Assembly (NCBI GenBank): GCA_964402035.1
Contig: CAYOAM010000003.1
Location: 86,480-150,479, forward strand
Source: an uncultured Candidatus Saccharibacteria bacterium
Lineage (GTDB): Bacteria; Patescibacteriota; Minisyncoccia; Phycocordibacterales; UBA918
Direction: 5' to 3'
Length of the DNA stretch: 64,000 nt
Below, piece after piece: positions 5,306-63,269 of the stretch. Position numbers and translations under genes: made by a program. Position 1 is the stretch's first letter; the number at the start of each line of letters is the position of its first letter. The notes below the pieces were generated by a model. That model was not told where the DNA came from. It worked only from the letters and a program-made list of their open reading frames with translations, and did not search any database.

Positions 5306-7126
5306 TTATACTGCTTCAGCCGCAATATCTCGAGTAATGTTATCGACACGTGCTTGAGCCTTCTCTTCTTCTGCTTCAGGGTCTTCTGCCAAAAGCGCTC
5401 CACCCAGAGAATTTATCTCTTCAAAGGGAATCTCATGATTCATCGCTTTAATCATCGCATCTTCGCGCATGGAGATAAAACCATGTGCGCGTGCAACTTT
5501 GTACATCTCTTCTTCTGAACCACCTTTCAAGATGAGCTGCTCAAGTTCATCCGTAATCTCAAATGCCTCCATGACCGCCATACGTCCACGTGTACCATTG
5601 GGACATTCTTTGGTGGCAGCTGCACGAAGCACGCTCATAGAGCTCGGTATAATCCCCCGATGCTCTGCGGGCAAATCGACAAACTGCGCGTCGATCATTG
5701 CCTTGAGGCTGCCCTTGAGCGACAACTCTTTTCCTGAATTAGGACAGATCTTTTTTACCAATCGCTGCGCCATAGCGAGTATCAATGTCGGTGCAATAAG
5801 ATACGGATCAACACCCATGTCGATCAGGCGCGGTACCACACCAATACTGTTGTTGGTGTGAATCGTTGAAAGTACTAAATGTCCGGTGAGCGCAGCTTGG
5901 ATCGCGAGCTGCGCCGTCTCTTTATCGCGGATTTCTCCCACCATGATAATGTCGGGGTCCTGACGCAAGACAGTACGAAGTCCGTTGGCAAACGTATAGC
6001 CAATCTCGGGACGCATCTGCGACTGACTCACGCCATCGATCTTGTACTCAACCGGATCCTCGAGCGATATCACATTTTTTCCAATCCGATCAACCTCATT
6101 TAGCATGGCGTAGAGCGTCGTAGATTTTCCCGAACCGGTAGGTCCTGAAATAAGGACAATGCCATACGGCTGGCGTACCGCCTTCTTTATGAGGTCAAGC
6201 TGGTACTTGGAGATACCAATGTCTTCCAAGGTGCGTACCCCACTCTCCGGGTCCAAAATACGCATCACGACCTTTTCGCCGTACTGTGTAGGGAGTGTCG
6301 AAACACGAAAATCAATCTTTCGATTGTCGATGGTCGCTGAAAAGCGTCCGTCTTGTGGTTTGCGCTTTTCGTCAAGGCGCAAGGACGAGAGAATTTTGAC
6401 ACGTGCCACGATCGCCGTCTGCACTTTCATAGGAAGTTCAATGCTCGTAGCCAGCACACCATCGACACGAAAACGTACACGTACTTTTTCTTCCGTTGGT
6501 TCGATATGAATATCCGAAGCATGGCCATCGACGGCGTAACGGAGAATCGTCGCCACGATACGAGTCACCGGTGCATCTTCCTTGATGATCTCTTTGGCAT
6601 TACCGGGTGTTTTCTCTTCTTCTTTTTCGCGTGTACGCTCCTCTGATTCGCTCGTGAGCTCTGTTTCAAGGTCAGTCAAAGCCTCGTCGACCTCTCCGGT
6701 GATATTGGCATACATTTCAAGCACTTTTTCCAAATCTTGCTCCAAAATGAGCATGAGCTTGTAGGGCAAGGCATTTTTTGATGATATGAAGTTTAAGGCA
6801 TCAAGAGCAGTGAGGTTATCGGGGTCTGTGACCCCAACTTCCAATACCCCATCTTTCTCTTCGAGCGGTACCAGGCGGTAGTGTCTCGCAGACTCCTCCG
6901 GTAAATAGCGCAAAATAGCTGGAGCAATTTTTTCCTGTGGCTGCAACCTTCGTGTCGGTAATCGATAGTATTCTCCTAATGCCGCCAGAAGCACATCGGG
7001 GTCAATGCCATTTTTCATGAGCGCACTCTCTAGTTTTGCGCTATTACCACCCGACTCAGCCAAAACAGCATCCGCAACCTCCTGCGTTAAAAGATTCTTC
7101 TCTTTGAGAGTATCGAGGATATGCAT
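5306..7126 (-). CDS. pilB: Type IV pilus assembly (extension) ATPase, GspE family
   Basis: 606 aa with N-terminal T2SSE_N-like domain, Walker A GPTGSGKSTT and GspE His/Asp boxes. Confidence 0.9.
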   Translation of the reverse strand: MHILDTLKEKNLLTQEVADAVLAESGGNSAKLESALMKNGIDPDVLLAALGEYYRLPTRRLQPQEKIAPAILRYLPEESARHYRLVPLEEKDGVLEVGVTDPDNLTALDALNFISSKNALPYKLMLILEQDLEKVLEMYANITGEVDEALTDLETELTSESEERTREKEEEKTPGNAKEIIKEDAPVTRIVATILRYAVDGHASDIHIEPTEEKVRVRFRVDGVLATSIELPMKVQTAIVARVKILSSLRLDEKRKPQDGRFSATIDNRKIDFRVSTLPTQYGEKVVMRILDPESGVRTLEDIGISKYQLDLIKKAVRQPYGIVLISGPTGSGKSTTLYAMLNEVDRIGKNVISLEDPVEYKIDGVSQSQMRPEIGYTFANGLRTVLRQDPDIIMVGEIRDKETAQLAIQAALTGHLVLSTIHTNNSIGVVPRLIDMGVDPYLIAPTLILAMAQRLVKKICPNSGKELSLKGSLKAMIDAQFVDLPAEHRGIIPSSMSVLRAAATKECPNGTRGRMAVMEAFEITDELEQLILKGGSEEEMYKVARAHGFISMREDAMIKAMNHEIPFEEINSLGGALLAEDPEAEEEKAQARVDNITRDIAAEAV

Positions 7127-7454: not shown

Positions 7455-8054
7455 TTATTTTGCTACACTGTTTACAAATGCATAGGTACGAAGTGTGATA
7501 TCGAATGTCATAAGATCACCTTCTGAGGCAGTAAATGTGAGATCCGTGACATCCAAAAACACCAGACTTTTTTCAAGATCGATCATCAGGGCGCGAAAAT
7601 CCTCGTACGTACCAAGAAGCCCAAGCTTAATATCGCGCGACGTATAGTGCTTTGGCACTTCTCCTTCAGGAGTAACGCCAACACTTGCTTCCGCAGCTGC
7701 TGCAGCGCGGCTACCCTTTGGAGCAACTTCCTTTGATTTTTCAACACTCACACTCGTGAGTGAGATTTTATGCATTCGCGTGAGCTCGTCCAAGTCTCGC
7801 ACGAGCGCTACTTCCTTGACCTCTGTCGGCAACATGGTCTTGAGGTTATCCATCGCCACCGGATCAAAACTCTTCATAAGATTGATTTTTCGCACCAACT
7901 CAGCTTGAAGAGCATCAGCTTGCTGTATGGCTTCGTCATATTCTGCCGACTGTTTCTGCACCTCCTTTACCGATTCAAACGTCGGTTTGATATACGTAAA
8001 ACCGAGACCGATGGCGATCAAGATTGCGATAATAGGTGCTAGTGCTTTAAACAT
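7455..8054 (-). CDS. pilO: PilO-like pilus assembly protein
   Basis: 199 aa, N-terminal TM helix then coiled coil. Position between pilN and pilB. Confidence 0.6.
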   Translation of the reverse strand: MFKALAPIIAILIAIGLGFTYIKPTFESVKEVQKQSAEYDEAIQQADALQAELVRKINLMKSFDPVAMDNLKTMLPTEVKEVALVRDLDELTRMHKISLTSVSVEKSKEVAPKGSRAAAAAEASVGVTPEGEVPKHYTSRDIKLGLLGTYEDFRALMIDLEKSLVFLDVTDLTFTASEGDLMTFDITLRTYAFVNSVAK

Positions 8055-8055
8055 A

Positions 8056-8742
8056 TTATGGATTTTGTACTTCGGTCACGGGAACCGTATCTGTCACAGG
8101 GTTTGGATCAAGGATGTCACCCTCATTTTCCTCTATATCTGGCAATACCTCGTAAGCCACAGCCTTTGGATCGAGTTCGGATGATACCTTAAACGTAATT
8201 TTGTCGTCTTCTTCGTCCTCGCCGGGCGTTATGGTTAAATCAGAAAAAATGAGGGAGCCCTCCTCAAACGATTTTTCTTCCTTGAACCCACGCTCTTGAA
8301 GGACGATGGTATTAAAGGTCGGTCCTGAACCAGCAAGCGCTACTTTTGCGGTACCAGATTCTTCACGTTTGAAACTAAAGCTAGTGAGCTCAACCTTTCC
8401 TTGTGTGCGCACCTCCAAGGCATCAAAAAGTCGTGTTAGTGAGAGATGCTGATTGAGGAGCAGATTCGCCGTTTGAAACTTATAGTCAAGATTGCGAATT
8501 TCCTCAATATTGGTCTGAGGAAATTTTGAGCGTTTTTCCGTAAGCGCTATTTTTTTTGCGGCCAAATCGTCCGCATTGTACTTTTTGTAAAAGAAGACCC
8601 CGACCGAAAGAGCGAGTGTTGCCAAAAAAATGGTCGTTGAGATAAAGGTGAGTACGTTGAAACTGCGGTGTTGACGTGAACCGCCAGCTGCGGGACCTGC
8701 AGACTGCTTTGGAATGAACGATGTTTGCGGAGTTGGAGGCAT
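8056..8742 (-). CDS. pilN: PilN-like pilus assembly protein
   Basis: Single TM, coiled coil, acidic C-terminus. Start set at internal Met 8742 (MPPTPQTS...); the longer ORF to 8835 would run into the palindrome. Confidence 0.6.
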   Translation of the reverse strand: MPPTPQTSFIPKQSAGPAAGGSRQHRSFNVLTFISTTIFLATLALSVGVFFYKKYNADDLAAKKIALTEKRSKFPQTNIEEIRNLDYKFQTANLLLNQHLSLTRLFDALEVRTQGKVELTSFSFKREESGTAKVALAGSGPTFNTIVLQERGFKEEKSFEEGSLIFSDLTITPGEDEEDDKITFKVSSELDPKAVAYEVLPDIEENEGDILDPNPVTDTVPVTEVQNP

Positions 8743-8791
8743 TGTTACCAGTATAAAGATAATGTGTCTGTATTGATAGCAAACGATGTGG

Positions 8792-8841
8792 ACATGAATG
8801 CACGGTGTGCCAAAATATTTTGGCACACCGTGCATTCATGT
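8792..8841. promoter_or_regulatory. 50-bp perfect palindrome in the pilM-pilN intercistronic region
   Basis: ACATGAATGCACGGTGTGCCAAAAT|ATTTTGGCACACCGTGCATTCATGT, verified base by base. No flanking U-run. Confidence 0.6.
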
Positions 8842-8969
8842 AGATAATTCTAAGCACACTAAAAATTTCAGATACGAGGCGCCAAGGAACGAGGACCCGA
8901 GTCGTACCTGATGTACGGTGAGCGGTACGAGTGACGATGGTAACGACGTAGATGGATTTTTTGGTGTGC

Positions 8970-10076
8970 TTAGCGTTCAGAAAGTCGTCGGAGCGCAGCA
9001 CCAACAGCAACAGCAAACGAGGGTCCGATTGTTTTTAAGGTATCTTGAAGAAATGCAGGATATTCAACTTTTGCAAAGGGATCGGCATTAAGAATCCGAC
9101 GACCGAGTACATTTTGTGCATACTCCGCAACGCCCGCGAGCGTTGCTCCACCACCTGAAAGCATCACGGACGACACTGGTACGGCTCCGTTGGTACGCTC
9201 GTATGCCTCAAGCAAGCGTCGAGACTCGATAAACATACGTTCGAGCGGCAAACTGAGCGCACGCTCAATCCGCGGATTCTCATGCGCCAAAAGTCCCACT
9301 TGACGCTTCATTTCTTCAGCATCAGATATAGTGAGTTCGAGAGACTTTGAAAGAGCCGACGTGAGATCTTGTCCACCCACTGTAATACTGTGTGTTGCCT
9401 GCACAATACCTCCGGCCACGACATAGAGTTTTGTTGTTGCGGCACCGATGTCCATAATAAGTATGGTCTCATCAATCTTTTGCACGCTCGAACGGATGGT
9501 ACTAAAGACTTCTATTTCGTTAAAACTCGAAAGCATCCCCGCCCCCTCGATCACCGTCTTAAATTTGCTCAGCGCTTCATTGTGAATAGCGGCCAAGAGT
9601 ACACGAGTTGTTGTCACTCGCCCCGCTGATTCAGCCCCATTTTTATTAGGCACCACAAACCAATCGAGCGTCACCTGCGAGACGGGCACTGGCACATATT
9701 TGCGGGCTTCAATCGGTATCATCGCCTCAAGGAGTGCCGGATCCTCAACCTGGAGTGAAATCACCGTCACGAAACTTGCAGCATACGGGACCGCAACACC
9801 AACGTTGCGGCTTGTGACAGATGCTTCTCGTACAATATCCAACAGCGCCTCCGTTGTTTTTCCCGGCTCAAGATTGGTGGCACGACCGACGTCCACGTTT
9901 GCATACGGCCCAAGCTGCAGTTCTCCATACGTCTCCAAAACCGCTCGCTGATGCTCGCGACGTAGTTGCACAATCTTTATAGAAGAAGAACCAAAATCAA
10001 TACCAACGACACTACCGCCATGCGCAGGCGCGGCGGCATTAAATAATTTACCGAGTGACTTAAAAGACAGATCCAT
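8970..10076 (-). CDS. pilM: Type IV pilus assembly protein PilM (actin-like ATPase fold)
   Basis: 368 aa with N-terminal GIDFGSSSIKIVQL and the PilM/FtsA-like fold signature. First gene of the operon. Confidence 0.85.
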   Translation of the reverse strand: MDLSFKSLGKLFNAAAPAHGGSVVGIDFGSSSIKIVQLRREHQRAVLETYGELQLGPYANVDVGRATNLEPGKTTEALLDIVREASVTSRNVGVAVPYAASFVTVISLQVEDPALLEAMIPIEARKYVPVPVSQVTLDWFVVPNKNGAESAGRVTTTRVLLAAIHNEALSKFKTVIEGAGMLSSFNEIEVFSTIRSSVQKIDETILIMDIGAATTKLYVVAGGIVQATHSITVGGQDLTSALSKSLELTISDAEEMKRQVGLLAHENPRIERALSLPLERMFIESRRLLEAYERTNGAVPVSSVMLSGGGATLAGVAEYAQNVLGRRILNADPFAKVEYPAFLQDTLKTIGPSFAVAVGAALRRLSER

Positions 10077-10917: not shown

Positions 10918-11005
10918 GGAGACGTGGCTGAGTGGTCGAAAGCACCTCACTGCTAACGAGGCAGGGCCGAAACGCCCTCGACGGTTCGAATCCGTCCGTC
11001 TCCGC
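10918..11005 (+). tRNA. tRNA-Ser (anticodon GCU)
   Basis: Acceptor GGAGACG/CGTCTCC, anticodon loop CUGCUAA, 18-nt variable arm with AGGGC/GCCCT stem, T-arm GACGG-TTCGAAT-CCGTC, discriminator G. One A:C mismatch at 31:39. No CCA encoded. Confidence 0.8.
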
Positions 11006-11054
11006 AACTGTTTTGAAAAGCACCACTTGCGGGTGTTTTTTGAAACAGGAGGAT

Positions 11055-11086
11055 GGGATTCGAAGCTGTTGCGAGATATTTTGGGA
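11055..11086 (+). repeat. Copy 1 of a 32-nt direct repeat (GGGATTCGAAGCTGTTGCGAGATATTTTGGGAG)
   Basis: Repeated at 11280-11309 with 3 mismatches. Confidence 0.5.
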
Positions 11087-11129
11087 GTGAAACGAACAGA
11101 ATATCGACAACGGGTACTGAACGTGTCAA

Positions 11130-11153
11130 CGTTCGAATCCGTCCGTCTCCGCA
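11130..11153 (+). repeat. Duplicate of the tRNA-Ser 3' end (T-arm plus acceptor), 125 nt downstream of the gene
   Basis: CGTTCGAATCCGTCCGTCTCCGCA matches 10983-11006 at 23 of 24 positions. Confidence 0.6.
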
Positions 11154-11177
11154 AATAACGAAGTGAGCGAAGGAGAC

Positions 11178-11309
11178 CAAACAGTCTGGGCTGAACATGC
11201 TGGGAGCATGTTCAGGACCTTGCGAGGTATCTTTAGAAAAGTACCCGCAAGGTGTACTGCTTCTGTCAGAAGACTGTTTGGGATTCGAAACTGTTGCCAG
11301 ATATTTTGG
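11178..11309 (+). ncRNA. Candidate structured RNA or repeat module, unclassified
   Basis: Long-range helix AAACAGTCT...AGACTGTTT encloses two stem-loops (CTGAACATGC-TGGGA-GCATGTTCAG and CCTTGCG...CGCAAGG). It is followed by repeat copy 2 and the 16-bp palindrome TCCGCCAGCTGGCGGA. No protein-coding signal. Confidence 0.3.
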
Positions 11310-11433
11310 AAGCCATAGTCCGCCAGCTGGCGGAGAACAAAAATAGCTGCAACGGATACTGAAACGGTACGTTTTAGTATCGCACTCTCCGCGAAAACTT
11401 GAGCGAATCACCTTTATAGATATGCTAATATAA

Positions 11434-16878: not shown

Positions 16879-16952
16879 CCGTCCTTAGCTCAGTTGGTTA
16901 GAGCATTCCGCTTATACCGGAAGGGTCCCTGGTTCGAGTCCAGGAGGACGGA
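16879..16952 (+). tRNA. tRNA-Ile with anticodon UAU (decodes AUA)
   Basis: Acceptor CCGTCCT/AGGACGG, D-arm GCTC-AGTTGGTTA-GAGC, anticodon stem TTCCG/CGGAA with loop CTTATAC (U33, anticodon TAT, A37), T-arm CCTGG-TTCGAGT-CCAGG, discriminator A. Confidence 0.75.
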
Positions 16953-16961
16953 CAAGATCAG

Positions 16962-19708: not shown

Positions 19709-20953
19709 ATGCGCAGTCTTCGTATCGGCCTCCTGTTGGGAATTCGCCAAATACAACGTGCAAACAAATGGGCTACGCTCTTAATTGTGTTTGTGTTGAT
19801 GCTTACCTTTCTTAACCTTGTTGCGGTCTCCGGCATCCTCGTTGGCCTCATTGAAGGGGCGGTGCGCGCAGTCAAAGAACAATCACTCGGTGACATAGTG
19901 ATTTCTCCATTGGCAGCAGAGGATCGCATCTTGGAAACTGAGCGCATTGTGCGCGAACTTGAGACATTTGGAGAAATCGAATCGTTTACCCCTCGATACA
20001 AAGATGGTGCAACTATCGAAGCAAATTACAAAGAACGGCGCGACTTGCGAGCCGAACGCGATATTGCAAACGTCAATGTCACCGGTATCGATACGGCACG
20101 CGAAGCACAAGCGACCGACCTTCCAGGCAACTTGATTGAAGGAGAATACCTTGCGCCCGATGATCAGGGCCAGATCTTGATCGGTAAATATTATATTGAT
20201 CGGTACGCAGAACAGTTTACCGATATCTTTGACTCCCTCGAAAATATCTACCCTGGCGATACCGTGCGCGTGACCGCTGGCAACACGAGCAAAGAATTTA
20301 TCGTCAAAGGCATCATCGATTCAAAAGTCGATGAAGTATCACTCAATACCTATATACCGGAACGTGAATTCAGGCGACTCTTTGCTCGCGACGACCACAA
20401 CGCGGACCAAATCGCGGTTTTTCTAAAGACGGGATCCGATGCTGAAAAGATGCGCACGACCCTACTTTCTGGAGGTCTTGGATCGCTCGCAAAAATTGAG
20501 ACATTTGAAGAAGCGCAGCCAAAATTTATCACCGATATCAAAAACACATTCGACGTCTTGGGAACCTTCATCGGCTCGATCGGCATCGTCGTCGCGTCGA
20601 TCACTATTTTCATCATTATTTTTATCAATGCCCTTTCCCGCAGACGTCAGATTGGTATCTTAAAAGCGGTGGGAATCGAACGTACGGTGATCGAGATCGC
20701 CTATGTCACTCAAGCGGCGTTTTACGCATTGACCGGATCAACATTGGGTATGCTCCTCACTTTTTTAGTGCTCGTCCCCTACTTTGATCGAAACCCAATC
20801 AGTTTTCCATTTTCAGACGGCATACTACTCGTGGAGTTTGGCGGCGCCATGATCCGCTTTGGTGTACTCTTTTTTGTGACACTGCTTGCAGGTTTTATTC
20901 CCGCATGGTTAATAGTCCGACAGAACACCTTAAACGCCATTTTGGGACGATAA
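19709..20953 (+). CDS. ABC transporter permease, FtsX/MacB-like
   Basis: 414 aa: N-terminal TM helix, large extracytoplasmic domain, three C-terminal TM helices (FtsX fold). 2-nt gap from the MFP gene. Confidence 0.8.
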   Translation: MRSLRIGLLLGIRQIQRANKWATLLIVFVLMLTFLNLVAVSGILVGLIEGAVRAVKEQSLGDIVISPLAAEDRILETERIVRELETFGEIESFTPRYKDGATIEANYKERRDLRAERDIANVNVTGIDTAREAQATDLPGNLIEGEYLAPDDQGQILIGKYYIDRYAEQFTDIFDSLENIYPGDTVRVTAGNTSKEFIVKGIIDSKVDEVSLNTYIPEREFRRLFARDDHNADQIAVFLKTGSDAEKMRTTLLSGGLGSLAKIETFEEAQPKFITDIKNTFDVLGTFIGSIGIVVASITIFIIIFINALSRRRQIGILKAVGIERTVIEIAYVTQAAFYALTGSTLGMLLTFLVLVPYFDRNPISFPFSDGILLVEFGGAMIRFGVLFFVTLLAGFIPAWLIVRQNTLNAILGR

Positions 20954-21113
20954 ACATGCAAAAGTATCTCATCTACTTCGTTGGGCGCTGCGGTACTCCT
21001 TCACCATATACATATAAGGCTCGGTTCATTCCTCGCACCCGCCTCGTATCTGAAACACTTTTGCACGTTTATACTATACTTTGTACATTCGATATTTTGG
21101 AAAATTTCTGACT

Positions 21114-21851: not shown

Positions 21852-22166
21852 ATGCAGAAAATAGCAGGCAGCTATCCCAGATTGACGCTGTCTCTCATGG
21901 TTGCGTTCTGGCCATTAACATGGGTACTAGCAGCATGTACCCGCAAGCAAACTGAACACACCACAAATGCTGAAATTGTCTTGGTGCTGATCGGTCTTGG
22001 ACTGCTGGTGACCAGCATCATTGGATTCGGAGGATCACTTTTCTTCGAACCATCAGACAGACTCTATACGATAGGGCTCGCGGCACTTGAATGGTATGCG
22101 ATCTACTGTACCGTGCTCTTTTTATGCGCACTTGACCGCGACAGTACAAACCGCCGAGCACCCTAG
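21852..22166 (+). CDS. Small hypothetical membrane protein
   Basis: 104 aa with three hydrophobic helices and a good AGGAG SD. Confidence 0.4.
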   Translation: MQKIAGSYPRLTLSLMVAFWPLTWVLAACTRKQTEHTTNAEIVLVLIGLGLLVTSIIGFGGSLFFEPSDRLYTIGLAALEWYAIYCTVLFLCALDRDSTNRRAP

Positions 22167-22190
22167 GGTGCTCGGCGGTTTTTTCTTTTT
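22151..22190. terminator. Strong bidirectional terminator
   Basis: CCGCCGAGCACCC-TA-GGGTGCTCGGCGG followed by TTTTTTCTTTTTT, between convergent genes. Confidence 0.7.
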
Positions 22191-28017: not shown

Positions 28018-28030
28018 CTAGAACATCTTA

Positions 28031-28076
28031 AAAACCCCGCGAGTGCCCTGGGCACTCGCGGGGTTTTTGTTTTTTA
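28031..28076. terminator. Strong bidirectional terminator
   Basis: CCCCGCGAGTGCC-CT-GGGCACTCGCGGGG followed by TTTTTGTTTTTTATT. Confidence 0.7.
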
Positions 28077-34156: not shown

Positions 34157-34186
34157 TCTCCCAAGCGTAAAACCGTCAGCACAAAA

Positions 34187-34223
34187 CCCCCGCGATTCCC
34201 CTCAAGGAATCGCGGGGGTTTTG
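34187..34223 (+). terminator. Strong terminator after rplT
   Basis: CCCCCGCGATTCC-6 nt-GGAATCGCGGGGG followed by TTTTGC. Confidence 0.7.
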
Positions 34224-34236
34224 CTATACTGTACCC

Positions 34237-34572
34237 ATGAAAAATTATAAAGGAAGCTGCCATTGTGGTGCAGTCGCATTTAAAGCTGACATGGAACTCA
34301 CGGGAGGTATGGTGTGCAATTGCTCACACTGCCATAAGAAAGGTGTGGTACTTGCCTTCGTCCCAAAGAGCCAGTTTACCCTTGAGAAAGGAGCAGACAA
34401 CCTCACCGAATATCGTTTTAATAAAAAAGTCATCAGCCATCAATTTTGCAAGACCTGTGGAGTCCAAGGATTCGGCAGCGCAGGCGAACAAGTCGCCATC
34501 AACCTCCGGTGTGTCGACGAAGTCGACCTCGACACCCTCCCCACCCAAAAATACAATGGGAAGGATTTGTAA
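34237..34572 (+). CDS. GFA-family (glutathione-dependent formaldehyde-activating / CENP-V-like) zinc protein
   Basis: GSCHCGAVAF...CNCSHCHKKG...FCKTCGVQ Cys motifs characteristic of the GFA fold. Confidence 0.7.
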   Translation: MKNYKGSCHCGAVAFKADMELTGGMVCNCSHCHKKGVVLAFVPKSQFTLEKGADNLTEYRFNKKVISHQFCKTCGVQGFGSAGEQVAINLRCVDEVDLDTLPTQKYNGKDL

Positions 34573-38949: not shown

Positions 38950-39062
38950 ATGTTTAAATAAGAGAACTAATAAGTCCACTACACATAAAAACAATAGCAT
39001 GGGTCTAGACCTGCAACAATTGGGCATAGTGCATAGGTAGGAAATGTAAAAATTATTGAAGT

Positions 39063-39094
39063 ATAAAAAATCCGCCTAATGGCGGATTTTTTAT
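39063..39094 (-). terminator. Terminator after paralog 3
   Basis: AAAATCCGCC-TAAT-GGCGGATTTT, near-identical to the 38553 hairpin. Confidence 0.5.
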
Positions 39095-39113
39095 ACAGAC
39101 CTTTTGTCTAGAC

Positions 39114-39446: not shown

Positions 39447-39540
39447 ATGTTTAAATAAGAACTAATAAGTCCACTACACATAAAAACAATAGCATGGGTT
39501 ACCTTGTGTATCCATCGGGTATGGTGCATAACTTCGAACG

Positions 39541-39582
39541 AAAAAGCCCGCGGAGACAAATGTCTCCGCGGGCTTTTTCTAC
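39541..39582. terminator. Terminator after fusA (bidirectional hairpin)
   Basis: AGCCCGCGGAGACA-AA-TGTCTCCGCGGGCT with T-runs on both sides. Confidence 0.65.
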
Positions 39583-42904: not shown

Positions 42905-42945
42905 AACCACTATCATGTACGTACATGATAGTGGTTCACGTTTTT
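42905..42945. terminator. Bidirectional terminator with perfect 32-bp palindrome
   Basis: AACCACTATCATGTAC|GTACATGATAGTGGTT followed by CACGTTTTT, between convergent genes. Confidence 0.65.
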
Positions 42946-44048: not shown

Positions 44049-44104
44049 GACATATACTCCTTTTTCCAAACCCACTGCACACTACCTTATTTCACCCAAA
44101 ACAG

Positions 44105-44145
44105 CAAAAGCTCCCTTACGGGAGCTTTTGCTGTTTTATTTTTTT
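44105..44145. terminator. Terminator after rpsG
   Basis: AAAAGCTCCC-TTAC-GGGAGCTTTT followed by GCTGTTTTATTTTTTT. Confidence 0.6.
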
Positions 44146-46276: not shown

Positions 46277-46287
46277 GACATTCGAAG

Positions 46288-46328
46288 AAAAAGCGCCGAG
46301 TACCAATGGGTACTCGGCGCTTTTTCTG
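46288..46328. terminator. Strong bidirectional terminator
   Basis: GCGCCGAGTACC-AAT-GGGTACTCGGCGC followed by TTTTTCTG. Confidence 0.7.
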
Positions 46329-60493: not shown

Positions 60494-62242
60494 TTATTCC
60501 GAAATAACACGGAGAACTTCTTCTATGGAAGTACGTTTTTGTGCAGCCTTAAAAATCCCATCTTCAACCATCGTCAACATCCCCTCTTTTCGCGCTTGTA
60601 CTTGGATCTCATCTGCCGTTGCATTGCGCATCACCATCTCTTTGAGTGAATTGCTCATGAGCAGTACTTCGTGAATACCGATTCGTCCCTTGTACCCATC
60701 CTCACACTCCGTTGACGCTTTCGGTCGATAAAACGGAATGTTGTTCCACTTTGTTTTTTCATCAATTACTTTTTCGTCGCGCATCACCTGCATCACATGT
60801 TCAAAATCAACATGCTTATCAAGATCCGCCTTCTCTTCTGCCGATAGAAAATATTCTTCTGCTTCGCCACAAAGCTGTCGCACCAAACGCTGCCCGATGA
60901 TGACGCGCAGTGTCGATACGAGGAGAAATGGTTCCATACCCATGTCGCTCAAACGAGCGACTGTTGCGGCAGCTGAGTTCGTGTGCACGGTTGCAAAGAG
61001 CAAGTGTCCCGTGAGCGCTGCATTGACGGCAAGTGACGCCGTTTCTGTATCGCGAATTTCTCCAACCATGATAACGTCAGGGTCTTGACGCATGAGTGAA
61101 CGCAGACCATTCGCAAAGGTGAAGCCCACATTGGGACGCACCTGCGTCTGGTTGATGCGAGGCATCTGATACTCGATCGGATCTTCAATGGTTGAGATAT
61201 TCACTTCGGGCGTATTCAAAACATCGAGCGCAGTGTAGAGCGTTGTTGTCTTTCCAGAACCCGTCGGACCAGTAACCAAGATCATACCCGTCGTTTGCTT
61301 TGTTGCACGATGAATACGCTCGAGTGATTCTCCATGGAAACCTAAACCTTCGAGCGTATAGCCATTGCGCCCTTCACGCAACAGACGCATGACGATCTTT
61401 TCCCCAAAATAGACTGGGAGAACCGACACGCGAAATGCGACTTTCTGTCCCTCAACTTCCATTTTAAATCGTCCGTCTTGCGGTACTCGTTTTTCATCGA
61501 GCTTGAGGTTTGAAAGCACCTTGATACGCGCAACAATCGTTGGCGCAGCACGAGGTGGCAGCGTCATAGCGTCTCGCAAAATACCGTCGATACGATAACG
61601 GACCAGCACCTCGTTCTCCATCGGCTCAATGTGAATATCTGACGCATTCTGCATGATGGCATGCCGCAAGAGTGTATCGACAATACGCACTACCGGCAGA
61701 TCTTCCGCCATTTTCTTGAGATCTTCCTCACTCGTCTCATCGCCCCCTTCCTCCAAGACCTTGAGCGCAGCCGTCTCCTTCATAATGATGTCGCCAAACT
61801 CATCCTTGAGCGTTTTTTGGTACTGACGAAGCGCAATTTTCATTGACTCCGTGTCTGTGAGTCGTGGCAAAATCTTGAGTCCCACCTTTTTCTTAATAAA
61901 ATCGATCGCGGGAAGATCAGCAGTATCGAGCATCGCAACCTCAAGTGAGTCTGCGTGTTTCTCAAATGCAATAATGTTGTGGTTGCGCGCAACCGGTTCG
62001 GGGATGAGCGAGAGCACCTCAAAATCAATCTTGCGATCGGCAAGTGCAATAAACGGAATCCCTAGAACATATGACTCGACACGACGAAGATCATCTTCAC
62101 TGATCGAACCTTGGTTCACGAGCGCTGTTGCAAGCGAGATGTGACTATCTTTTGCAATTTTCGCTGCCGCATCAATATCTTTTTGAGATACGAGGCCGGA
62201 GTCTAGAATGAACCGCTTCAATTGTGTGTCTTGTATACGCAT
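60494..62242 (-). CDS. Second GspE-family pilus/pseudopilus assembly ATPase
   Basis: N-terminal T2SSE_N domain, Walker A GPTGSGKTTT, tetracysteine-less GspE core. Start at internal Met MRIQDTQ. Confidence 0.9.
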   Translation of the reverse strand: MRIQDTQLKRFILDSGLVSQKDIDAAAKIAKDSHISLATALVNQGSISEDDLRRVESYVLGIPFIALADRKIDFEVLSLIPEPVARNHNIIAFEKHADSLEVAMLDTADLPAIDFIKKKVGLKILPRLTDTESMKIALRQYQKTLKDEFGDIIMKETAALKVLEEGGDETSEEDLKKMAEDLPVVRIVDTLLRHAIMQNASDIHIEPMENEVLVRYRIDGILRDAMTLPPRAAPTIVARIKVLSNLKLDEKRVPQDGRFKMEVEGQKVAFRVSVLPVYFGEKIVMRLLREGRNGYTLEGLGFHGESLERIHRATKQTTGMILVTGPTGSGKTTTLYTALDVLNTPEVNISTIEDPIEYQMPRINQTQVRPNVGFTFANGLRSLMRQDPDVIMVGEIRDTETASLAVNAALTGHLLFATVHTNSAAATVARLSDMGMEPFLLVSTLRVIIGQRLVRQLCGEAEEYFLSAEEKADLDKHVDFEHVMQVMRDEKVIDEKTKWNNIPFYRPKASTECEDGYKGRIGIHEVLLMSNSLKEMVMRNATADEIQVQARKEGMLTMVEDGIFKAAQKRTSIEEVLRVISE

Positions 62243-62394
62243 AGCGCACTCACCAAAAGTGAAGTGAATGACTTTAGTATAGCAAGCACTCGCAGAAAAA
62301 AATGCACACAATTATTTTTTACGTGTATAAAAAATAATTGTGTGCCGAAGCAAATGCCCCGTGCATAAAACGCAGCAAAATTGTTTGAGCACTT

Positions 62395-62949: not shown

Positions 62950-63269
62950 AGGGATAGTATAGCAATAATTTTGTACATGCCTCAATTCTAGAATCAATAC
63001 TATAGCAGTAACGTTTCTATTTTTTGACAAACCCAAAAAAGAGAGTACTATGAGGGGACCTGTTTCTGTCGACCGCGCGGTCGGCATTTTTGTTAGGAAA
63101 CTGCGGGAAATTTTATAAAAATACCAAGTAAAATAAGGGTTTTTATAAAATCGATGCCATACGAGACGCCGACGAGTAAAGATCCCGAGGCGTATTTGAT
63201 ATACGATGAGGGTCTTTGCAAGGAAGGCAACGATGTAGGGCGCGATTTTAGGAAAACCCGCACCATATT

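Follow-up and report, generated by a model that had tools for sequence, protein, structure and literature searches.

Does the long perfect palindrome between the type IV pilus genes pilM and pilN serve the expression of these genes, or did it arise in some other way? An earlier note on this DNA had offered three functional candidates, i.e., an RNase processing or stability element that sets the PilM:PilN ratio, an operator for a dimeric regulator, and a recombination site. Here, we examine the palindrome within the whole 64,000-nt stretch of DNA that was analysed (the window), together with the pilM-pilN spacers of relatives and the structured repeat that adjoins it. The DNA stems from an uncultured member of the Patescibacteria (Parcubacteria/Kaiserbacteria-like), in which the locus is part of a 461.7-kb contig.

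The palindrome and its surroundings

In the window, the pilM-pilN spacer measures 227 nt (8743-8969). The locus is composed as follows.

5306-7126, minus strand: gene of a PilB-type ATPase
7455-8054, minus strand: weak match to PilO
8056-8742, minus strand: pilN, 228 aa, ATG at 8742
8750-8755, minus strand: promoter-like -10 hexamer TATACT, 7 nt before the pilN ATG
8787-8794, minus strand: TGTCCACA box, conserved in all relatives, with 31 nt between it and the -10-like hexamer; the TGT of the box forms the last 3 nt of the palindrome
8792-8841: perfect palindrome with 25-nt arms (8792-8816 and 8817-8841), 100% complementary, 0-nt spacer
8842-8849, minus strand: linker AATTATCT, 8 nt from element A to the palindrome, completing a -10-like GATAAT on the plus strand
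8846-8975 (covariance model R1; 8850-8973 in the repeat search), minus strand: element A, 98.5 bits, E 2.8e-23
8970-10076, minus strand: pilM, 368 aa, Pfam PilM_2 (3.1e-37)

The gene identities given earlier for pilM and pilN hold: besides the PilM_2 match, the N-terminus of pilN (MPPTPQTSFIPKQ) aligns with M(E/D)xSPKTSFIPK of relatives, and gene callers also start the gene at 8742. The pilM stop codon (TAA, 8970-8972) lies at a position homologous to that of relatives (..LSER* vs. ..LSEK*). An in-frame ATG inside the palindrome (8835) was rejected as start of pilN, since it would add a 31-residue extension without counterpart in homologues and the callers use 8742.

As a whole, the window is densely packed with type IV pilus and competence genes. 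It holds three T2SSE-domain proteins, two PilC-type (T2SSF) genes, a prepilin peptidase (364-1275) and a ComEC-like competence protein; a second PilB-type ATPase gene is located at 60494-62241 on the minus strand, besides the one at 5306-7126.

The palindrome consists of ACATGAATGCACGGTGTGCCAAAAT followed directly by ATTTTGGCACACCGTGCATTCATGT and has an AT-rich centre (AAAATATTTT). When the spacer-less palindromes of the 64-kb window are ranked by half-length, it comes first with 25, followed by 17 and 16, and the largest half-length in 200 shuffled windows is 12. Both the reported 50-bp perfect symmetry (25+25 nt, 100% in the repeat search) and the judgement that it is far beyond chance are thereby borne out. 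As pil-sense (minus-strand) RNA, it is predicted to form a 23-bp stem closed by an AUAU loop (dG -41.5 kcal/mol, z = -11.6), of which the 22-bp stem with AAUAUU loop described before is an equivalent description; a 23-bp stem with a 4-nt loop is predicted for either RNA strand. The distances put at about 50 nt to the pilN start and about 130 nt from pilM measure 49 nt to the ATG and 128 nt from the stop. No other copy of the arm was found at up to 3 mismatches within the 64-kb window of the at least 462-kb genome, for which shuffles predict 0 copies.

The palindrome is real and fixed in the population, and an assembly artefact is excluded. Three independent SPAdes assemblies (ERZ3430525, ERZ3430527, ERZ3430528) agree in every base of the pilM-pilN spacer. 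Furthermore, Logan k-mer contigs (SRR7369912, SRR7369924) end 5 nt beyond the palindrome centre from both sides, which indicates a genuine palindrome longer than k. That is, spacer-less perfect palindromes break k-mer assemblies at predictable points.

Three sequence motifs in or around the arms were rejected as meaningful. The first, CCAAAATAT, is enriched in the window (6 seen vs. 0.5 expected), but its occurrences are the palindrome itself, one site beside a second copy of the neighbouring repeat (element B, see below) and a tRNA-adjacent direct repeat, such that it is no shared regulatory motif. GCACAC/GTGTGC is common to the outer stem of element A, the palindrome and the hairpin at 62304-62345, but this 6-mer is merely twofold over-represented window-wide. 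Finally, a sigma-54 reading of TGGCAC-N-TGCA in the arm fails because its GG..GC spacing is 2 nt short of the consensus.

With regard to tRNA genes, the 3' end of a tRNA-Ser (24 nt, GTTCGAATCCGTCCGTCTCCGCAA; 10984-11007) is duplicated 147 nt downstream (11131-11154), and a second direct repeat of 34 nt (91% identical, 225 nt apart) is found at 11054-11087 and 11279-11312. These repeats look like att-type scars of an integrated or excised element. The window also encodes a tRNA-Ile with anticodon UAU (16879-16953, plus strand), which is uncommon in bacteria.

Long perfect stems are also found in the window's intrinsic terminators, which are built as A-run, perfect stem and T-run with stems of 16-22 bp, most of them 100% complementary (28030-28068, 39540-39579, 46286-46327, 44098-44137, 34182-34223, 39061-39096, 62304-62345, 42905-42936 and 22143-22186). 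The A- and T-run flanks amount to a bidirectional design, and one of these terminators (42905-42936), located between convergent genes, is itself a perfect palindrome of 32 bp without spacer. Eight other hairpins of the window, with 16-19-nt arms, are also 100% complementary. The pilM-pilN palindrome resembles the terminators in its long perfect, GC-containing stem; it differs in that their A/T runs lie outside the stem, while its own lie in the centre only. No U-tract is found 3' of the stem, where CCACAUCGUUUGC stands on the sense strand and GAUAAUUCUAAG on the other, and a terminator scan reported none at the palindrome. The earlier statement that the lack of a U-run speaks against a simple intrinsic terminator is in accordance with this design of the window's own terminators.

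Comparison with relatives

Upstream of pilN, the arrangement TGTCCACA-N31-TATAAT/TATACT-N7-ATG(pilN) is common to the window and six of the relative spacers examined. One further version (L001) shows spacings of N40/N9, and two more distant genomes (L002, L003) carry (A)nTCCACA-N32-34-TATAAT-N8-10-ATG before pilN. A conserved -10-like hexamer 7 nt before the start codon implies a separate leaderless transcript; from this arrangement we infer that pilN has a promoter of its own, which yields a leaderless mRNA. An activator or UP-like site is a possible role for the TGTCCACA box, which is found at about -52 to -45. Given this promoter-like module, the premise of the earlier note, i.e., a single polycistronic pilM-pilN mRNA, becomes doubtful. 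With a separate pilN transcript, the hairpin would sit in the pilM 3' UTR or in read-through RNA.

Such an arrangement may be common in this genome. Many other long ORFs also have a -10-like hexamer 6-7 nt upstream of their ATG (e.g., 34237 and 41889 on the plus strand; 51170, 44623, 29354, 17674 and 5298 on the minus strand), and these ORFs with a TATAAT-like hexamer near the start codon show no Shine-Dalgarno sequence. The ATG at 34237, with its -10-like hexamer, directly follows a terminator. Their start regions thus suggest that leaderless transcription units may be frequent here.

We compared the spacer with those of eight relatives, the PilM proteins of which are 64-69% identical to that of the window (loci L001, L056, L057, L058/L059, L060, L065 and L066/L067). 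The palindrome is missing from all eight: their spacers measure 52-84 nt and their longest perfect stems 4-7 bp. Conservation of the palindrome in related pilM-pilN spacers, which had been suggested earlier as a check, thus fails among these relatives. They are distant, i.e., the PilM identity is at most 69%, and a database of 5.8 billion proteins holds no PilM between 69% and 100% identity to that of the window.

The difference in length can be located. From the pilM stop to TGTCCACA, relatives have 0-26 nt and the window has 175 nt, such that about 150-175 nt are specific to this lineage.

8795-8969, minus strand: lineage-specific stretch from the pilM stop to TGTCCACA, as judged from the spacer comparison with relatives

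This stretch contains the structured repeat element A, the 8-nt linker and nearly the entire palindrome. Database searches yielded no source for the palindrome: its central 26-mer (GGTGTGCCAAAATATTTTGGCACACC) has 0 matches in viral contigs and JGI metagenome contigs, the whole spacer including the arms has no relevant BLAST match in phages and plasmids, and Rfam, searched at gathering and E-value thresholds, returns for the palindrome only sub-threshold matches to generic miRNA-precursor hairpins, which are typical for any long hairpin.

With about even confidence, we read the palindrome as a young, lineage-specific inverted duplication, placed beside a dispersed repeat within the roughly 150-175 nt of extra DNA. 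It would have originated when one arm was copied onto the other by template switching at an AT-rich quasi-palindrome; alternatively, an insertion would have left it behind. In either case, the DNA concerned would also have received element A. Template switching during replication, by which quasi-palindromes are corrected and which is known from the work of Ripley and Lovett, reportedly makes imperfect inverted repeats perfect in one step. It explains the 25/25 identity and the sharp borders of the palindrome without selection. As a mutational mechanism, it is not a functional class, and the available relatives contain no imperfect precursor.

Not one mismatch separates the two arms, which points to a recent event. 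On the other hand, perfect stems of 16-19 bp are the rule among the hairpins of this genome, such that perfection alone is no proof of youth; selection or continual templated correction could instead have produced the perfect symmetry.

What such a duplication would do to the RNA can be outlined from the predicted fold. RNA read through from pilM would carry a perfect 23-bp hairpin in the pilM 3' UTR, just upstream of the pilN promoter module, and a hairpin in such RNA is, within this structural model, the sole certain physical effect of the palindrome. At least 90% of CPR genomes retain RNase III, RNase J and PNPase (PMC12641178). As Patescibacteria generally have these enzymes, the hairpin should stop decay that proceeds in the 3'-to-5' direction and/or be cut by RNase III, and it would help to define the 3' end of the pilM message. 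A required device that sets PilM:PilN ratios is unlikely, since pilN seems to have its own promoter and relatives do without the hairpin.

The adjoining repeat family

Element A, which adjoins the palindrome across the 8-nt linker, is a rod-like imperfect palindrome of about 125-130 nt that fills most of the pilM-pilN spacer. Its outer stem (8850-8876 / 8947-8973) takes in the TAA stop codon of pilM. The earlier description of the spacer rightly saw the palindrome and missed the 125-nt structured repeat next to it. Two further copies are present in the window.

20949-21075, plus strand: element B, second copy, between an FtsX-like permease gene and its ABC ATPase gene
63133-63261, minus strand: element C, third and more divergent copy, found with covariance model R1 (59 bits), with compensatory changes inside the boxes

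A weak BLAST match at 62182-62280 was rejected as a further copy: this stretch encodes part of the N-terminus of a pilB-like ATPase and is not recovered by R1, such that we take it for a chance match.

Members of the family share the boxes CATCTACnTCGTT and GCCTCGTATCTGA, an inner GC stem and a central CGTAC-loop-GTACG hairpin. The sequence of the outer stem varies, and its complementarity is always kept. From elements A and B we derived the search pattern ATCTACNTCGTT-N45-72-CCTCGTATCTGA, which specifies 23 bases and for which we estimate at most about one chance match. It matched 48 metagenome contigs (loci L008-L055) and no viral contig. Model R1 detects additional copies in several metagenome contigs; the pil loci of the relatives yield none.

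In the family alignment, the stems covary. Here, 79% of the cells are paired, compared with 30-44% when partners are slid, and double-change cells number 279 vs. 109 in shuffles (0 of 500 shuffles reach the observed value). Of the two strands, the one antisense to the flanking genes unexpectedly pairs better. It is the more stable one in 45 of 46 members (mean -58.6 vs. -43.5 kcal/mol) and likewise for all three copies of the window, and of its non-canonical counterparts, with the invariant pair set aside, 130 cells are A.C and 47 G.T. Rfam 15 contains no family matching the repeat (element A in the window and 18 loci), and a full-text search with the box sequences returned unrelated primer matches only. 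We regard the repeat as a candidate for a new, undescribed family of structured RNA or ssDNA within the candidate phyla radiation.

With regard to placement, the element usually begins on the stop codon of a co-directional gene that precedes it. In 35 of 50 cases, an ORF of the same strand terminates within the outer stem, 6-24 nt ahead of the first box, and the flanking genes are diverse housekeeping genes. In one locus (L025, 285-487) the element begins 2 nt past a tRNA gene; in another (L031, about 6616-6666) it is directly followed by a hairpin with 24-nt arms and A/T-run flanks. Both cases show that the element sits at the ends of genes of any type. A GC-rich member follows pilC of a Candidatus Kaiserbacteria relative, which places this widespread family at least in the Patescibacteria.

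Among known repeats, the closest analogue of element A (not of the palindrome) is ERIC, the enterobacterial repetitive intergenic consensus. ERIC sequences are imperfect palindromes of about 125 nt that occur in several dispersed copies within transcribed intergenic spaces and are conserved across species. Element A is like them in size, imperfect symmetry, dispersal and placement between or after genes. It differs in that there is no sequence similarity, the host belongs to another phylum (Patescibacteria), the stems covary, and pairing is better when the element is read antisense to its flanking genes. Correia-type intergenic repeats are likewise similar to element A in size, shape and placement.

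The palindrome itself is a neighbour and not a member of this family. Model R1 assigns it 18-19 bits, as it does for ordinary terminator hairpins, while true copies reach 59-98 bits. Among about 45 other members, a long palindrome accompanies the element in one case only, namely the L031 hairpin, which is terminator-like with its A/T runs. Neither element B nor element C of the same genome has an adjoining palindrome.

Alternative readings of the palindrome

Among the alternatives to a young inverted duplication, function at the RNA level comes first. Processing or stabilisation of the RNA is physically plausible, given the modelled hairpin. In its selected form, the palindrome would be an RNase III site or stabiliser in the pilM-pilN read-through mRNA that uncouples the decay of pilM from that of pilN-pilO and so tunes their stoichiometry in this lineage; we regard this as unlikely. 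A perfect duplex of 20 bp or more is a classic RNase III substrate, and the 23-bp duplex is within this range, its transcription being inferred from the position after pilM. The hairpin is very stable, lies exactly between two cistrons, and is fixed and identical in several samples, and rnc is among the genes kept in at least 90% of CPR genomes (PMC12641178). Against selection stand the eight relatives with their 52-84-nt spacers, all of which lack the hairpin, and the leaderless-type promoter module downstream, owing to which pilN expression need not depend on the pilM transcript. Moreover, no covariation speaks for selection on the pairing.

Known RNA elements provide partial likenesses. REP and other intercistronic stem-loops, e.g., the malE-malF REP of E. 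coli and the puf hairpins of Rhodobacter, stabilise the upstream mRNA. The palindrome resembles them as a stable hairpin between co-directional genes without U-tract, for which a block of 3'-to-5' exonucleases favouring the upstream cistron would be expected. REPs, however, are imperfect, 30-40 nt long and present in hundreds of copies per genome; the palindrome is perfect, 50 nt long and single-copy in 64 kb, and its downstream gene seems to have its own leaderless promoter. The Correia/NEMIS elements of Neisseria have 26-bp terminal repeats 50-100 bp apart, occur in hundreds of copies and duplicate a TA. Here, the likeness lies in inserted intergenic DNA that gives rise to long mRNA hairpins (cleaved by RNase III in the case of Correia) and in the ability of such insertions to create promoters. 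In contrast to Correia/NEMIS, the arms of the palindrome abut, no second copy exists and there is no clear target duplication. The multiple copies typical of REPs and MITEs are not observed for the palindrome within the 64-kb window at up to 3 mismatches.

Distinctly unlikely, in our view, is a site that acts at the DNA level, either as operator or cruciform for a dimeric regulator at -99 to -50, directly upstream of the pilN promoter module, or as donor of the -35 hexamer (TTGGCA) of an antisense promoter. The latter is based on one feature.

8820-8848, plus strand: sigma-70-like TTGGCA-17-GATAAT, matching the consensus at 10/12 positions, formed by the right arm and the linker, antisense to the pil genes

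The dyad symmetry is perfect, the AT-rich centre favours cruciform extrusion, and the palindrome overlaps the conserved TGTCCACA box by 3 nt. The candidate antisense start (about 8854-8856) coincides with the 5' end of the more stable strand of element A, which fits the better folding of the reverse-complement strand in nearly all members and the three window copies. By our reading, each of the three copies of the window also has a -10-like hexamer, which is located 1-2 nt ahead of the start on the reverse strand. As an operator, on the other hand, 50 bp is far above the usual size, there is no second site in the window and no regulator gene was identified nearby. A dyad conserved in orthologous promoters, as expected for an operator, is not observed: the window has the dyad and the eight orthologous spacers do not, and the operator proposed in the earlier note loses ground accordingly. 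For the promoter part, the scan gives 3 sites vs. 3.0 expected in the region, i.e., no excess over shuffles. No consistent reverse-strand upstream promoter is seen across other family members, for which reason a general antisense promoter of the repeat family was rejected.

Somewhat more doubtful still is a transposon remnant, in which abutting terminal inverted repeats of 20-25 bp would be left after internal deletion (a minimal MITE); a variant of it, covered by the same assessment, takes the palindrome as the footprint of an insertion or excision tied to the arrival of element A. The sharp borders and perfect arms are consistent with such an origin, as is the position within lineage-specific inserted DNA beside a dispersed repeat. 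Furthermore, we read the palindromic CATG at both ends as a possible target duplication. There is no direct repeat outside the palindrome, and the CATG ends could hide one; an unambiguous direct target duplication is missing, and other family members have no palindrome. With up to 3 mismatches allowed, the window contains no second copy of the arm. BLAST of the spacer against phages and plasmids gave no relevant match, and the 25 most frequent of the 75 Pfam families hit include no transposase.

Improbable, and less so only than the readings that follow, is a combination in which palindrome and element A form one lineage-specific cassette. Here, the right arm and the linker would be the promoter of an antisense RNA that extends from about 8855 to a U6 run at about 8957-8962. 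In this cassette reading, the palindrome could also be a cruciform or operator switch for both divergent promoters. If true, the RNA would come from a widespread, undescribed rod-like family located antisense at gene 3' ends in Patescibacteria, and its target would be the 3' end of pilM or the promoter region of pilN.

We hold it for very improbable that the palindrome is an atypical, U-tract-less terminator of pilM. The very stable hairpin does lie directly after the gene and before a promoter-like module. However, CCACAUCGUUUGC and not a U-run follows the stem, the genome uses the canonical A-run/stem/U-run design, and relatives have no terminator at this position.

Finally, a site for a site-specific recombinase or hairpin-forming enzyme (protelomerase-, Xer- or integrase-type) is extremely improbable: protelomerase targets are perfect palindromes of about similar size, but this one is surrounded by a pil operon that is intact and syntenic, on a contig of 461.7 kb, the 25 most frequent of the 75 Pfam families hit by the window's 66 ORFs include no recombinase, the spacer has no relevant phage or plasmid match and the central 26-mer is unmatched in viral contigs. 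Together with the lack of a second copy and of an orthologous site, this also removes the basis for the recombination site considered earlier.

If the palindrome is a young inverted duplication, as we prefer to read it, a statistically extreme feature can be the accident of one lineage rather than a conserved element of control, and a candidate 'PilM:PilN stoichiometry switch' drops out. What is conserved at this locus is the putative internal, leaderless-type promoter of pilN with its TGTCCACA box, which bears on the organisation of type IV pilus genes in ultra-small bacteria.
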